Virus record (IMG/VR): IMGVR_UViG_3300029305_003072
DNA: 64,000 nt
Direction: 5' to 3' (one strand)
DNA from: a virus
Lineage: Duplodnaviria > Heunggongvirae > Uroviricota > Caudoviricetes
Shown: one piece after another, positions 6,437 through 63,070 of the stretch
How positions within the stretch are numbered: position 1 is the first letter of the stretch
Layout of the letters: every line of letters begins with the position of its first letter
Made by a program: the position numbers and the translations under genes
Notes under the pieces: generated by a model
Told to the model about the DNA's origin: nothing
Seen by the model: the letters and a program-made list of their open reading frames with translations, nothing else
The model's database searches: none

Positions 6437-6465
6437 ATTATACCAAAATTTTTATTATAAGTCAA
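6437..6465 (-). promoter_or_regulatory. Sigma-70-type promoter TTGACT-N17-TATAAT (extended TG) upstream of dnaE
   Basis: Reverse complement of the +strand 6437-6465. Exact hexamers with a 17-nt spacer. Confidence 0.6.
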
Positions 6466-6467
6466 CC

Positions 6468-7658
6468 TTACGGTCTCACCCAAACGAGTTTTTCACTGGC
6501 ACGGGTTGCCGCAGTATATGCCCAGCGTGCATGCTCGGTCTTTTCATAAGGAAAACCTTCTTCATAGACCATTACCTTACCCCACTCAGAGCCTTGTGCT
6601 TTATGACAAGTAATACCATAGGCATAGGCGAATTCGAATGGAGGGTCAGGACATTTAGGATTTTTACGCATCTGGAACTCTTGCTTACCAGTTAAGAATT
6701 TCTCACCAGTAGTCAAAGAGGTATAATCGACGGGAATATAATTAAATACATCACCATTCTCGTCAATCATGTTTGTATATAAAATAGGAATTTTTTTCTC
6801 ACTAATCCAGAATGGAAGACTCATATCATAACGGTCAGTGCGCTGGATAACTCCAATAGTGCCATTAGTTAAAGGAGCTGGGTCTACAACTCCATTAGAG
6901 AAGAACTCCCATTGATTTCTCAAACTAATAATCTTATCACCAACTGCGGGTTCGGGTCCGAATCCTTTAATCTGGCGCATATTCATATTAATCGCATTTC
7001 TCTTTGCGTTAGTCGCACAAAGAATTTGGTCTGCCCAATCGTACATTCCAGTTACGATTTCTTCTGGCTTTACAAACATTACTTGTTGACCGGATGCAGG
7101 GAATTCGTTAAGAGGCTTGCCTTCACGAATCCACATAGAGAAACGAATAATTTCACTATCATATGCCTGTCGCATAATTTCATCCAAGAAAATATGCGGA
7201 TGGTCAAGTACATGATTATCACTATCCTTGTCGATGGGAGGTAACTGGAAGGGGTCGCCGCACGCAATAACATGAATGCGATGTGACAACAATCTCAACC
7301 ACATTTCTTTTGGAAGCATAGAAACCTCATCAACAATAATAACTTCCAACCCATCATCCAAGGAGGGTTTTGGTTCAAATTTAAAAGTGCCATTTGGCAT
7401 GGGTTTTGCTTTATAAAGCAATTTGTGAGCAGTAAAAGGATTAGGACACCCCTTCTGCTTTAACACTTGTGCGGCCTTACCAGTATATGCCACATAACAC
7501 ACTTGCTCGGGTTCTAGACCAAGGGCCGCAATGATAAACTTAATCAATGTAGACTTACCTGTGCCAGCGTAGCCGGAGATACAAGTGTAGGCTTCATGCG
7601 ACTTATAACGAGAAACCGCAATCTTTAATCCCTCTTCTTGTTTAGCTGTTAAAATCAT
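6468..7658 (-). CDS. SF1 DNA helicase, Dda/RecD-like
   Basis: Walker A GYAGTGKST, Walker B IIVDEVSM, and GDPFQLPP. Confidence 0.75.
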   Translation of the reverse strand: MILTAKQEEGLKIAVSRYKSHEAYTCISGYAGTGKSTLIKFIIAALGLEPEQVCYVAYTGKAAQVLKQKGCPNPFTAHKLLYKAKPMPNGTFKFEPKPSLDDGLEVIIVDEVSMLPKEMWLRLLSHRIHVIACGDPFQLPPIDKDSDNHVLDHPHIFLDEIMRQAYDSEIIRFSMWIREGKPLNEFPASGQQVMFVKPEEIVTGMYDWADQILCATNAKRNAINMNMRQIKGFGPEPAVGDKIISLRNQWEFFSNGVVDPAPLTNGTIGVIQRTDRYDMSLPFWISEKKIPILYTNMIDENGDVFNYIPVDYTSLTTGEKFLTGKQEFQMRKNPKCPDPPFEFAYAYGITCHKAQGSEWGKVMVYEEGFPYEKTEHARWAYTAATRASEKLVWVRP

Positions 7659-7933
7659 TTTATATCATCCTCCTGGTCATGCGCATGAACCAGTTGCTCA
7701 AGAGTCATATAGAAATGTTGTTTACGACTATTCATACGACGCTTTTCTTCAATTGGGTCAGTGCGCTCAACACGAGCCTTATATATGGCTAATTCATCAC
7801 ATACCTCAGCAAATCTGAAGTAAATACTATCAAAGCCAAAATCAAGCCTATCTTTACAGACTCGATTTAATTCGTCTCGGTCAACATAAACCTTATTTAA
7901 TTTTTCTACTAATTTTTGTGCTTCTCTATTCAT
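7655..7933 (-). CDS. Hypothetical protein, 92 aa
   Basis: ORF with a consensus promoter directly upstream. Confidence 0.4.
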   Translation of the reverse strand: MNREAQKLVEKLNKVYVDRDELNRVCKDRLDFGFDSIYFRFAEVCDELAIYKARVERTDPIEEKRRMNSRKQHFYMTLEQLVHAHDQEDDIK

Positions 7934-7955
7934 TTACATTCACCTTTTTATTTTT

Positions 7956-7984
7956 ATTATACCAAAATTTATATTAAAAATCAA
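7956..7984 (-). promoter_or_regulatory. Promoter TTGATT-N17-TATAAT (extended TG)
   Basis: Same architecture. Upstream of gene 7655..7933. Confidence 0.6.
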
Positions 7985-8432
7985 CGGTAAAATCCCATAA
8001 GGGTCGCTGTTGTATAAAGTCCTCACTATCAAGGTCGACAAAACCAGGTAAAAATGGATTTTGCTCAATTTGGGAAAAAATTTCTAAATCCCCTTTTTGA
8101 TTTGGGTTTTCGGTCTTCTCGTCCAAGGCCGACCGGAGCTCGTCTATTTTTATTTCATCTATATCAATTATTGCTTGTAATGCAGCATCTCGACTTTCAC
8201 ACTCATATCGCAAATCATGCAAGTCATCTTTAATAGCAGTAATCTCACTACTATGATATTCTAGACGAGAAAGAACTTCATTCATTCTTTTAATTGCCTA
8301 AGTCATTTCATAAGCCGTAACCCCAGTAGATGACATAGCTCGAGCCAAATCTTGTATTTGACTTGAAAATTGATTCATTGATGGTAGTTCATATACGGTG
8401 CCATTCACCGCAATTGAATGTAACTGTGACAT
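7974..8432 (-). CDS. Hypothetical acidic coiled-coil protein, 152 aa, with one in-frame TAG
   Basis: ATG at 8432 with an AGGAG RBS. MSQLHSIAVNG...AYEMT*AIKRMNEVL is in frame with ORF 7974..8285. Confidence 0.45.
8101..8148. repeat. 48-nt repeat, copy A (inside a coding region); its partner is at 63400-63447
   Basis: The two copies share 39/48 identities. Each contains a 5-bp stem, cggtc/gaccg here and cggcc/ggccg in copy B, with compensatory changes. Confidence 0.5.
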
Positions 8433-8460
8433 CTTATTTTCTCCTATAAATGAAAATAAT

Positions 8461-8487
8461 GGGAACATAATATTAAATTATGTTCCC
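8461..8487 (-). terminator. Hairpin (11-bp stem gggaacataat/attatgttccc) after the lysozyme gene
   Basis: Perfect inverted repeat with a U-rich tract on the minus strand. Confidence 0.45.
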
Positions 8488-61238: not shown

Positions 61239-61642
61239 TACCTATATCTCCTTTCCAGAGCTTCAAGAATTTCAATGGCAGCTTCGCACAGGTCAATGTA
61301 GCTTAGTCCACGGAATGCAGTGTTAGGACAGTTATTAGAAGTTTCTCTTGCAAAAATTTCTTCTACAAGCTCACACAGATAGCCAGCTTTATCACCATCA
61401 TGGTCATAAACCTGGCTTAAAAGACGAGAAGTTATAGATTTAATTTCCCAATCCAAACCCAGCTCACCAAATCCCCACAGCTTACCTTGGACAGTAATCC
61501 AAGTTTTAGCCGCTTCATCGTCGGCACAAATATTATAATAAGTACAGGGCTTTTTGCCCGCACGCCAAATTTCAAAAGCATATTGCTTAGGCATTAGGTT
61601 CTCCCCATCCTTCCTCAAAATCTTCTTTGAGTACATACTCAA
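61238..61642 (-). CDS. Hypothetical protein, 134 aa
   Basis: ORF only. Confidence 0.3.
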   Translation of the reverse strand: MSMYSKKILRKDGENLMPKQYAFEIWRAGKKPCTYYNICADDEAAKTWITVQGKLWGFGELGLDWEIKSITSRLLSQVYDHDGDKAGYLCELVEEIFARETSNNCPNTAFRGLSYIDLCEAAIEILEALERRYR

Positions 61643-61868
61643 CTAATACTTTATTATCTCCACAAAGCATAGTCTGTAAAATGACAACATCTTTAACACA
61701 GTATCTATTAATGAATAGCTTAGGCTCATCATCAAATAGAGAACTATTAGCATCAAGATTGCGGATAATCATTTTGCTCTTGGGGTGGGATTTGCGGAGC
61801 GTACCGCTGACCGCATTTACATGATAGTTAAAATGGCTACCGCCAACATGAACATTTGTATTAAGCAT
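61587..61868 (-). CDS. Hypothetical protein, 93 aa
   Basis: ORF only. Confidence 0.25.
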   Translation of the reverse strand: MLNTNVHVGGSHFNYHVNAVSGTLRKSHPKSKMIIRNLDANSSLFDDEPKLFINRYCVKDVVILQTMLCGDNKVLVEYVLKEDFEEGWGEPNA

Positions 61869-62166
61869 CAGTTGTTTCCTCCACCCATTGATTATATTTA
61901 TCTAACATTAGTTGCCAATAATTGGCTCTTTTCGTTAACGTTTGCCGAACGATTTCAACAGCTCGCTTCTTAGCAGCTTCAAAATCTTCAGCATTAATAT
62001 GAACTTTAATATCGGTAAAGCCTCTATCATACCACCAAACAGTGTATCTATTTTCACCAATTTTGGCGACAGAAATTTCACATTTATTCCTATTAGTAGG
62101 TTTGCCCCAAATGGCAGACCAACATTCAAAGCCTTCGGGTCGATAGTCATGATATTCCCATTTCAT
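61861..62166 (-). CDS. Hypothetical protein, 101 aa
   Basis: ORF only. Confidence 0.3.
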   Translation of the reverse strand: MKWEYHDYRPEGFECWSAIWGKPTNRNKCEISVAKIGENRYTVWWYDRGFTDIKVHINAEDFEAAKKRAVEIVRQTLTKRANYWQLMLDKYNQWVEETTDA

Positions 62167-62167
62167 A

Positions 62168-62551
62168 TTACTTTACCTCCGTCCAGCCATTTCGCTGAAT
62201 AATTGCCTGCATTCTCTGTCTTGCCACAGGATTAGCAGAATGAATACGAATAGGAACATTGTGACCAGTAGCTTCCAGCCAGTCCAAGAGCTTATAACCT
62301 TCGGGAATACCTTCGCCTAGGTCATTGTCGCAAGAAACTTCTTCGATATTGAAAACTGCGAAGCACTTTTCAAACAGCTCTCGCTCCATATAACCCATGA
62401 TATACTGCTTCCAGAGGAAGTCAGTTTCTTTTTTACAGCGGATAATCTCGCAGATGGCGCCATCAACGTCATAAACTCGAATATATCCGGCCGGTGCGGG
62501 ACGCACATCATCCATCCAAATCTTCATTGAGATTATCCTCCGTTTCTCCAA
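62168..62551 (-). CDS. Hypothetical protein, 127 aa
   Basis: ORF only. Confidence 0.3.
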   Translation of the reverse strand: MEKRRIISMKIWMDDVRPAPAGYIRVYDVDGAICEIIRCKKETDFLWKQYIMGYMERELFEKCFAVFNIEEVSCDNDLGEGIPEGYKLLDWLEATGHNVPIRIHSANPVARQRMQAIIQRNGWTEVK

Positions 62552-62629
62552 AATAACAGCCGTCTCGGCTTTCTTTCATTTCACAGTCTTCCCAATAGAC
62601 ACATTGAGAACAAATCACAAAGTCTCCCA

Positions 62630-63058
62630 TTATTCCTCCCGAATCTTAAAAGGACACCAATCGGGCACGGGAGGCATTTCGCTATCATACTCAATGTATC
62701 CAGTGATTTTGCGAGGTCCATTGGAAGTCTGACAGGCATTACAGTAGTAATCAAAAGCGAATCCAGCTCTTGGAGTGCGAGTTTCCTTAACACAAGGACA
62801 TTCGTCGCATCGGCCAACGCCGATTACTACCATTGCGGCAGGCTCGAAAGAATGGTCGGAACAGTGACCCTTATCGCACTTGTATCCTTCAACATCGCAC
62901 TTTTTCAGTTTACAATAAATTTTATTGCTATCCTCATAAGGAACACAATGCTTACACAGGACTCCTCTTTTCATAACCATCTTCCTTTCTATTCTTTGTA
63001 TATATATTATATCATATTTTTTATAAAAAATCAATAAACAAAAAAAAGGCAGACTCAT
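62630..63058 (-). CDS. Cys-rich Zn-binding protein
   Basis: Multiple CxxC and CxC pairs. A promoter and terminator cassette sits upstream. Confidence 0.35.
   Translation of the reverse strand: MSLPFFCLLIFYKKYDIIYIQRIERKMVMKRGVLCKHCVPYEDSNKIYCKLKKCDVEGYKCDKGHCSDHSFEPAAMVVIGVGRCDECPCVKETRTPRAGFAFDYYCNACQTSNGPRKITGYIEYDSEMPPVPDWCPFKIREE
63006..63034 (-). promoter_or_regulatory. Promoter cassette
   Basis: Conserved cassette with hairpin 63048-63070. Confidence 0.65.
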
Positions 63059-63070
63059 TAAGAGTCTGCC
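63038..63070 (-). terminator. Rho-independent terminator
   Basis: Stem ggcagactc/gagtctgcc followed by an 8-T run. Confidence 0.65.

Follow-up and report, generated by a model that had tools for sequence, protein, structure and literature searches.

A 64-kb stretch of the metagenomic assembly IMGVR_UViG_3300029305_003072 (Caudoviricetes), derived from a large uncultivated gut phage and referred to here as the window, carries ten near-identical copies of a promoter element in its 38.5-63 kb part, eight of which are joined directly to an upstream hairpin. Judged from their sequence, these class A elements are probably insulator-type terminator-promoter cassettes that split the accessory region into about ten units and that also constitute portable homology. 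In the proposed mechanism, the hairpin would terminate and stabilise the upstream transcript, and the promoter would at once re-initiate transcription with the host SigA holoenzyme. The 25-kb accessory region would then be expressed as approximately ten autonomous units of one to nine genes each, and the 45-55 bp common to the units would serve as portable homology for excision, insertion and exchange between cassettes. The first-pass annotation of this DNA had proposed terminator-plus-promoter units of the sigma-70 type that bracket accessory genes and resemble the promoter-early-stem-loop (PeSL) elements of T4, a view now supported by the anatomy of the cassettes, their hairpins and one translocation.

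A pattern scan of the window for TTGAYW-N17-TATAAT gave 20 exact matches, all 20 on the minus strand, compared to a mean of 0.15 and a maximum of 2 in dinucleotide-preserving shuffles. All long open reading frames (ORFs) are likewise on the minus strand and the GC skew is negative throughout the window; the promoter sites are thus co-oriented with transcription. Nineteen of the 20 matches are intergenic and, where gene starts are reliable, the -10 hexamer lies 22-46 nt from the start codon, with a ribosome-binding site (RBS) of the AAAGGAG type. The remaining match (18143-18171, minus strand) sits within the N-terminal coding sequence of DHFR (MISAIVAVDNNWGIGYNG) and is probably no cassette but a chance match within coding sequence. 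A relaxed scan of the window (one mismatch per hexamer, spacers of 16-18 nt) gave no further convincing intergenic copy, and the set of matches is sharply bimodal. Nor was a decayed or extra cassette found in the 169-bp gap at 39333-39503, where some relatives carry one; this gap holds a small ORF. An Rfam gathering scan of the window gave no match.

An alignment anchored on the -35 separates the intergenic matches into two classes. The 34-bp core of class A is present, with at most three mismatches, in eight copies in the window against none expected, and a 1-nt register variant (63034) and a more diverged copy (50668) raise this family to ten. The nine class B copies (6.4-34.7 kb) have in common the hexamers, the 17-nt spacing, an AT-rich spacer and usually the TG, and appear to be ordinary consensus or strong SigA promoters of replication and nucleotide-metabolism genes, mostly without hairpins. 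An independent repeat finder also detected these elements, grouped in dispersed families of 13-15 copies at irregular intervals of 1.2-11.6 kb. The repeats are consequently not confined to one duplicated block, the finding that the first-pass annotation had named as contrary to its proposal. Its estimate of about ten copies with a near-identical 34-bp core is also confirmed, as eight copies plus two variants. Its larger figure of about 19 near-identical cassettes is right as a number of sites (20 matches, 19 intergenic) but not as a repeat, since only the ten class A copies form a true sequence-repeat family.

The class A copies (-35 positions 63034, 59566, 58159, 55573, 54350, 50668, 48050, 44624, 40457 and 38568) have about 55 bp in common, from the -35 through the RBS. 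In order these comprise TTGATT, the spacer TTTATAAAAAAATATGW or its 1-nt register variant TTTTATAAAAAATATGW, TATAAT, ATATATAG/GT and a purine-rich leader with AAAGGA(G). The spacer is 17 nt long and ends in TATG (TTTG in 50668), the 'TRTG' extended -10 of Gram-positive bacteria, and the AT-rich start region ATATATAG follows a perfect TATAAT. Class A thus has the features of a Gram-positive SigA extended -10 promoter, i.e. a TTGACA-like -35, a 17+/-1 spacer, TRTG at -18 to -15 and TATAAT. The ten cassettes are given below with the folding free energy (dG, kcal/mol) and z score of their upstream folds.

62975..63072, minus strand: class A cassette 1; hairpin 63072-63046 (GGCAGACTC..GAGTCTGCC followed by T8), -35 at 63034-63029, -10 at 63011-63006; dG -19.4, z -6.8. 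Its leader and RBS (minus strand) run to a probable ATG at 62974.
59514..59596, minus strand: class A cassette 2; hairpin 59596-59566, promoter 59566-59538; dG -22.1, z -5.4; core identical in the closest relative. Its leader ends at the ATG of a metallophosphatase gene (58635-59513, minus strand).
58101..58192, minus strand: class A cassette 3; hairpin 58192-58158, promoter 58159-58131, ATG at 58100; dG -23.5, z -6.9.
55499..55605, minus strand: class A cassette 4; hairpin 55605-55572, promoter 55573-55545, 46-nt leader, sigma factor gene downstream; dG -20.8, z -6.0.
54284..54375, minus strand: class A cassette 5; hairpin 54375-54350, promoter 54350-54322, RNase T-like exonuclease and RNA ligase unit; dG -17.3, z -4.6.
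50606..50668, minus strand: class A cassette 6, diverged and without hairpin; promoter 50668-50640, one-gene vault-like unit; z -0.86.
47997..48076, minus strand: class A cassette 7; hairpin 48076-48053, promoter 48050-48022, nicotinamidase, phosphoribosyltransferase and Sir2 unit; dG -20.5, z -4.4.
44568..44653, minus strand: class A cassette 8; hairpin 44653-44625, promoter 44624-44596, NAMPT, NAD synthase and NADAR unit; dG -19.7, z -4.5.
40396..40480, minus strand: class A cassette 9; hairpin 40480-40458, its last paired base abutting the -35, promoter 40457-40429; dG -18.3, z -5.8.
38512..38568, minus strand: class A cassette 10, without hairpin; promoter 38568-38540, the TAA of the upstream gene abutting the -35; z -0.84.

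A hairpin lies directly upstream of eight of the ten class A promoters, compared to two of the ten other matches (fused at 15287, and 32 nt upstream at 29305). The ten hairpins have free energies of -17.3 to -24.5 kcal/mol and z scores of -4.4 to -8.7, none of 200 shuffles being as stable. They have the structure of intrinsic terminators, with stems of 9-16 bp including 5-8 GC pairs, followed by T1-8 and TTGATTTTT. An upstream fold of -15 kcal/mol or below is found for 8/10 class A copies, compared to 3.5% of random 49-mers (binomial 1e-10), and approximately ten of the some 15 strong terminator-like sites on the minus strand of the window abut a promoter. The 3' arm of a class A hairpin ends 0-11 nt before the -35, and the T-run is largely made up of the -35 TTGATT itself and the T-rich first part of the spacer; this overlap is directly visible, and its use in termination is putative. 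The information content upstream of the -35 is close to zero and the stem sequences are unrelated between copies. The earlier claim that the structure rather than the sequence of the stems is conserved is thereby upheld, while the claim that most copies follow a hairpin applies to the near-identical family (8/10) and not to all copies, of which half (10/20) do so. The -35 variant TTGATT is associated with a hairpin (85% versus 57%), an association confounded by class identity. That TTGATT was chosen for a double role as terminator U-run is something we only infer, and hairpins in the distant relative phAss-1 precede TTGACA with similar T-runs.

The exact 34-mer recovers 84 loci, 61 in IMG/VR contigs (up to 190 kb long, several with multiple copies) and 23 in contigs of metagenome-assembled genomes (MAGs) or uncultured isolates, several of the latter from yak and other animal-gut samples. 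No cultured isolate genome contains it, all matches in the genome collections being to MAGs or uncultured assemblies. The MAGs concerned are labelled Clostridia, Alistipes, Treponema, Methanobrevibacter, Succinivibrio and Nanosyncoccus, and two of the contigs measure 139 kb and 176 kb; these contigs are probably mis-binned phage genomes. The cassettes of the relatives are 88-98% identical to those in the window, compared to 65-87% for coding DNA, and many loci resemble the window in the cassette alone. Over all loci 251 distinct cassette contexts were collected, 171 of them class A-like, a proportion biased towards class A by the ascertainment with the exact 34-mer. In these 171 contexts sequence conservation extends from the -35 to about +10, with none upstream. 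A fold of -12 kcal/mol or below nevertheless precedes 57% of them, compared to 12.5% of random 49-mers. At a cutoff of -10 kcal/mol within the upstream 50 nt a hairpin is present in 106/171, and in 87 of these 106 the last paired base lies 0-3 nt from the -35.

Equivalent elements occur in two described phages that are distantly related to the window phage. phAss-1 (OQ749652.1) has 30 TTGACW-N17-TATAAT sites, all on the gene strand (30/0), with a homogeneous spacer and several of them fused to GC hairpins. The start region ATATATAGAAAGT is common to phAss-1 and the window, and TAG is recoded in both. In contrast, the phAss-1 spacer is (T/C)AAAAAAATTTTTRTG, i.e. A7T5RTG, where that of class A is T5ATA7. 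Promoters, terminators or repeats are not mentioned in the paper describing phAss-1 (PMC10607447). In Enterococcus phage H1 (OP534061.1) the hexamers are kept and all matches are gene-oriented, with heterogeneous spacers, and several -35s lie in a hairpin loop. Both phages share with the window the gene order RecD-like helicase, Pol III alpha and guanylate kinase, and the trio of NAMPT, PRPP synthase and nicotinamidase genes, although their Pol III alpha is only about 38% identical in amino acids to that of the window. At 93.7-99.1 kb in H1, at 127705 in phAss-1 and in several IMG/VR loci the -35 TTGACA is placed in the loop of a terminator hairpin (AAAAGGGG TTGACA ACCCCTTTTTT...TATAAT), a variant in which terminator and promoter overlap completely.

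As class B and H1 promoters retain the hexamers with variable spacers, the class A spacer is not needed for SigA function. A spacer that is lineage-specific and internally uniform suggests that each lineage has propagated and homogenised one cassette, or that a factor peculiar to the lineage binds it. In a comparison of the window with the closest available relative, IMGVR_UViG_3300045988_079139, the 36-nt core is about equally similar in paralogous and orthologous pairs (2.9 mismatches between orthologues, 4.0-4.3 otherwise). The leaders keep an orthologue signal (6.6 versus 12.5 mismatches), and the hairpins at orthologous positions are often replaced outright.

The comparison with this relative covered 24.6 kb, with a DNA identity of 80-87% and a protein identity of 67-100% for most shared genes. 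Within it one cassette-bounded unit has changed place:

48089..50605, minus strand: translocated module, a gene encoding an 838-amino acid protein with MVP shoulder and vault repeat domains, 93% identical in amino acids to the copy in the relative.

In the window this vault-like unit is located between the cassettes at 50668 and 48050, some 12 kb from its location in the relative, which is directly upstream of the counterpart of cassette 63034. Four other contigs keep the order of the relative and two have the 50.9/51.1-cassette-47.9 junction without the unit, which makes the window arrangement the odd one out. Junction alignments show that the hairpins ahead of the unit in the relative and ahead of window cassette 63034 are orthologous, and that the hairpin following the vault-like gene (48076-48053) has moved along with the gene. 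All three homology switches (3/3) fall between the end of a hairpin and the RBS, i.e. within the shared cassette. Two further cassette-bounded units of the relative are missing from the window, and gene content in the class A region varies between relatives. Comparative genomics, which the first-pass annotation had suggested for finding out whether the genes between cassettes are variable, thus shows that they are. We conclude from these sequence comparisons that a module bounded by cassettes has been exchanged on at least one occasion; a general role is compatible with the evidence, not proven. In a refined test with stops projected and with a cassette in either genome, 63% of such junctions were broken versus 41% of the others (Fisher p=0.02), including 12/12 where the cassette was in the relative only. 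The statistical link between cassettes and synteny breaks is accordingly modest.

Several observations weigh against cassettes that both insulate and recombine. A gene-family adjacency test and a tblastn test, each based on the window cassettes, gave no enrichment of breaks (odds ratios 0.57-0.94, not significant); both covered all, mostly distant, relatives, and the former used crude gene calls. The p=0.02 of the refined test likewise comes from phylogenetically non-independent contigs and crude gene calls. Several small indels relative to the closest relative fall within units, away from cassettes. Rearrangements might be seen at unit borders since only those preserve expression, with no promotion of recombination by the cassettes. 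A repeat-induced chimera in metagenomic assemblies is possible, and would require three separate misjoins. A bound factor, rather than homogenisation, could be what keeps the spacer nearly identical. On the side of termination, a GA (TTTTTTGATTTTT) interrupts the T-run, and termination at the cassettes may on this account be partial; two class A copies (50668 and 38568), with z scores of about -0.85, are without a hairpin altogether.

In an alternative reading the cassettes are strong host-type promoters with adjacent terminators only, near-identical through selection for one optimal promoter or recent descent from a single copy and without a causal role in shuffling, rearrangements simply being tolerated nowhere but at unit borders. 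The absence of break enrichment around window cassettes and the indels within units are both in line with this, and selection for a strong promoter would be expected to fix just such features as the -35, the TG, the -10 and the 17-nt spacing. Such selection does not readily account for the spacer, however, given that class B and H1 promoters carry the same hexamers with variable spacers and that phAss-1 has fixed a different one (A7T5 instead of T5ATA7). It also leaves aside that all three switches of the translocation lie inside the shared 60 bp rather than just anywhere between genes, and that hairpins at orthologous positions have often been replaced outright. We regard this reading as unlikely, though the best placed of the alternatives, and retain the terminator-promoter cassette with portable homology as the preferred one.

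A wider interpretation draws on the genes that the cassettes would control. The window encodes Pol III alpha, a RecD-like helicase, DnaB, RecJ, gyrase A and B, an NAD-dependent ligase, thymidylate synthase, DHFR and tail lysozyme domains, and its Pol III alpha is about 38% identical in amino acids to those of SPbeta-like Bacillus phages, phAss-1 and Enterococcus phages. The class A units of the 38.5-63 kb accessory block hold one to nine genes each, some 45 in all. Between 38 and 63 kb these include genes for NAD salvage (NAMPT, an isochorismatase-type nicotinamidase, a phosphoribosyltransferase, Sir2, NAD synthase, NADAR, a cytidylyltransferase-like (NMNAT-like) protein and an AAA_28 kinase) and for RNA repair (an RNA ligase, a Thg1-like protein, three metallophosphatases, a cREC_REC protein and an RNase T-like exonuclease). 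A counter-defence function is plausible for both sets. The NAD+ salvage island and the RNA-repair set occupy 38569-47996 and 51348-59513 (minus strand), and an AAA_33 kinase at 37555-38100 is counted with the latter. The 838-amino acid vault protein (48089-50605) and a 502-amino acid SPFH/flotillin-like protein (34834-36342), both on the minus strand, are unusual phage cargo. The earlier description of many small accessory genes bracketed by cassettes is correct as to bracketing, with about 45 genes in units, but not all are small, as the NAD and RNA enzymes, the sigma factor and the 838-amino acid protein illustrate. A megablast search of the 38-60 kb region against 50,697 phage records gave no match, and relatives were traced by way of the cassette itself.

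The same region stands apart in its use of stop codons. Several genes between 1.6 and 37 kb have in-frame TAG codons spanned by Pfam domains:

1666-2236, 9425-11195, 14565-15224, 17696-18193 and 19378-20401: genes with in-frame TAG.
8300, 32835, 34030, 34352 and 36973: apparent TAG stops.

The DHFR_1 match of DHFR covers residues 1-163 of 165 across one TAG, and the profile match of the guanylate kinase covers 3-178/182 across four. A GIY-YIG protein has nine TAGs in its reading frame, two of them within the matched domain, and the genes for RecJ and a zinc-finger protein also contain in-frame TAG. At every apparent TAG stop in 1-38 kb the in-frame extension fills the gap to the next gene. By this pattern TAG probably encodes Gln in the window phage (code 15-like), as in its distant relative phAss-1, a described TAG-recoding phage of the 'code 15 clade' (PMC10607447). 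ARAGORN detected no tRNA, and hence no suppressor tRNA, within the window. The some 45 class A genes (38003-63058), by contrast, have no in-frame TAG and end in TAA (33) or TGA (12) (Fisher p=0.011). In the related contigs an apparent TAG stop occurs in 7/448 genes inside cassette spans versus 21/241 outside (p=1.7e-5). In published surveys recoded stop codons are found mainly in late genes (10.1101/2021.08.26.457843). Being the only part of the window free of recoded TAG, the class A units are probably an immediate-early class, translatable with the standard code of the host. The GIY-YIG gene (19378-20408, minus strand) lies directly behind a strong terminator (20408-20382) without a promoter of its own, and is possibly a tightly silenced homing-endonuclease-like gene.

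It could be that the cassettes are exchange sites of a clade-wide system in code 15 Firmicute gut phages, defining a TAG-free immediate-early regulon that the code and the SigA of the host suffice to read and that in the window lineage is amplified by a phage-encoded SigA paralogue without region 1.1. One homogenised terminator-promoter-leader per lineage would then let units recombine within and between co-infecting relatives. This extension is, in our estimate, quite improbable.

A further reading, which we find decidedly doubtful, takes the spacer for an operator, the T-run/A-run (a 12-14 bp palindrome, TTTTTATAAAAA) being bound by a phage regulator that switches all class A units together. 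It would explain a spacer as invariant as the hexamers in 171 contexts and yet lineage-specific, and the window has a gene for a winged-helix protein (17273-17626). The best cultured match to the Pol III alpha is that of SPbeta (38% amino acid identity), a phage with a 15-bp repeat in some ten promoter regions that is the MrpR site (PMC10516654). The centre of the palindrome shifts by 1 nt between the common variants T5ATA7 and T6ATA6, however, and variants such as TTTCAAAAAAAATATG break it; a palindromic operator was rejected as a conserved feature on these grounds. Among the window proteins scanned, the window being part of a genome, there is no tyrosine-recombinase-like or other repressor, and there is no sign of lysogeny genes in the window.

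A phage-encoded sigma factor offers another candidate for a factor acting on all class A units:

54596..55498, minus strand: SigA/RpoD-like sigma factor of 300 amino acids, with regions 1.2, 2, 3 and 4 (1.2-4.2) and without region 1.1.
54361-54594, minus strand: gene for a 77-amino acid protein, between the sigma gene and the downstream cassette.

Its best NCBIfam matches, to RpoD models, stay below the equivalog cutoffs. The alignment with a Firmicute SigA of 368 residues covers residues 95-367 of the latter (E 3.5e-80), and region 1.1 is consequently missing. The recognition helices of regions 2.4 and 4.2 are conserved, with a W to Y change in the Trp pair of region 2.4 and an H to N change in region 3.0, positions which we take to be DNA contacts in E. 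coli sigma-70. The phage sigma being itself SigA/RpoD-like and conserved in regions 2.4 and 4.2, it and the host sigma are not distinguished by the promoter consensus. Since its gene lies behind class A cassette 55573, and since phAss-1 has equivalent cassettes without such a sigma, the host SigA is needed first. The first-pass annotation had concluded that the cassettes imply host sigma-70 transcription despite the phage sigma factor. This stands in so far as the host SigA must act first, and is weakened in that the phage sigma is of the primary type with the same consensus. Class A might accordingly be a regulon of the phage sigma, primed by the host SigA and then amplified by the phage protein. 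The sigma gene is indeed flanked by class A cassettes in the window and in several related contigs, where the unit is conserved; the protein keeps the SigA recognition helices yet carries substitutions at the presumed contact positions, and conservation of class A reaches beyond the canonical promoter elements. Against this stand the 30 equivalent and equally homogeneous cassettes of phAss-1, whose whole genome contains no detectable homologue of the window sigma, the textbook SigA consensus of class A and the dependence of the sigma gene itself on a class A cassette. A phage sigma regulon is therefore very unlikely, and promoters specific to the phage sigma were rejected on the basis of the phAss-1 cassettes.

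That the repeats are selfish miniature mobile elements, or an artefact of assembly or chance without a regulatory role, has a negligible probability: they are indeed dispersed short repeats in metagenomic assemblies, but they are strictly gene co-oriented in three lineages (20/0 in the window, 30/0 in phAss-1 and all H1 matches), keep a fixed distance to start codons and the same positions upstream of orthologous genes in many independent contigs, and have no terminal inverted repeats or target duplications.

Outside the accessory region the class B promoters are distributed as follows.

34653..34713, minus strand: class B promoter TTGACT-17-TATAAT; nearest terminator 34818-34791, about 78 nt upstream.
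29233..29366, minus strand: class B promoter 29305-29277, driving gyrB; hairpin 29366-29337 and T-run 32 nt upstream; dG -24.5, z -8.7.
23055..23108, minus strand: class B promoter TTGACA-17-TATAAT, without hairpin, driving the NAD-dependent ligase gene.
21002..21062, minus strand: class B promoter TTGACA-17-TATAAT, without hairpin.
20701..20800, minus strand: class B promoter with TTGACT, TG-extended, without hairpin, with a 71-nt leader.
17627..17699, minus strand: class B promoter with TTGATT, driving the gene for a 117-amino acid winged-helix protein.
15225..15313, minus strand: class B promoter 15287-15259 with fused hairpin 15313-15283, ahead of the zinc-finger gene (TAG as 12th codon); dG -22.6, z -5.9.
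7934..7984, minus strand: class B promoter with TTGATT, TG-extended, without hairpin.
6404..6465, minus strand: class B promoter with TTGACT, TG-extended, driving the Pol III alpha gene.

A 73-nt direct repeat, D8 (8076-8148 and 63375-63447, 75% identity), was considered as a small RNA and rejected, one copy being inside a 103-amino acid ORF. That copy (8076-8148) forms the 3' part of the ORF, upstream of promoter 7984; the other (63375-63447), in an apparently non-coding stretch flanked by a terminator (63496-63473) and by cassette 63034, is probably what remains of a paralogous gene.

Three known systems invite comparison with the terminator-promoter cassettes of the window. PeSLs of T4-like phages consist of a stem-loop, an AT-rich region and a sigma-70-type early promoter; they are enriched in hyperplastic regions and at the boundaries of indels and replacements between close relatives, and can form mini-circles (Arbiol et al. 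2010, PMC2839356; Comeau et al. 2014, PMC4122927). The window cassettes resemble them in the succession of a predicted stem-loop terminator and a host sigma-70-type early promoter, and in being repeated many times, gene co-oriented and concentrated in an accessory region with stems conserved in structure. They may also be alike in where rearrangement breakpoints between related phages fall, the window having one three-breakpoint translocation with its switches in cassettes, but also indels within units. They differ in that the stem abuts the -35 (0-11 nt) with no AT-rich UP-like block in between, that an extended -10 (TATG) and some 25 nt of conserved leader belong to the repeat, that the stems have no polyG/polyC motif and that the units avoid the recoded TAG codon. 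The phage itself is not a T4-like myovirus, having a siphovirus-type Pol III alpha/DnaB/gyrase replication module like those of SPbeta, phAss-1 and Enterococcus H1, and Firmicute-type promoters and RBSs. The cassettes are not homologous to T4 PeSLs, and the resemblance is one of function. The SPBRE repeats of Bacillus phage SPbeta, binding sites of the master repressor MrpR (PMC10516654), similarly place a short conserved element in about ten promoter regions of a large phage. SPBRE, however, is a 15-bp operator identified by chromatin affinity purification sequencing (ChAP-seq) in a temperate phage, whereas the window repeat is a promoter plus leader fused to a terminator, its palindrome is not strictly conserved, and no MrpR-like protein or lysogeny function is found among the window proteins scanned.

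SPO1 is a large phage of Gram-positive bacteria that belongs to the Herelleviridae, a different family from that of the window phage. Its host-takeover module is reported (Stewart et al. 1998/2009) to contain densely placed strong host-SigA early promoters and terminators, which divide its small accessory genes into many short operons. The SPO1 early operons are not known to have been described as near-identical 55-bp repeats or as recombination sites.

The window cassettes are best seen not as a new kind of element but as the PeSL design in a Gram-positive-type variant, with a closer overlap of terminator and promoter and a leader that is conserved. The phages that carry it form an uncultivated clade, to which phAss-1 and Enterococcus phage H1 are related. 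This extends the PeSL idea from T4-like phages of Gram-negative hosts to unrelated, mostly uncultivated large phages of gut and rumen Firmicutes. As the genes in the units have functions of the counter-defence type (NAD+ salvage, RNA repair, sigma), the way in which units are swapped bears on how anti-defence repertoires are assembled, and the contrast between TAG-free class A units and TAG-containing other genes provides a testable link of promoter class to stop-codon recoding. The cassette is also a simple searchable landmark, the exact 34-mer alone having given 84 loci, many mis-binned in bacterial, archaeal and candidate phyla radiation (CPR) MAGs. Finally, the cultured relative Enterococcus phage H1, with cassettes of the same design, makes these predictions experimentally accessible.

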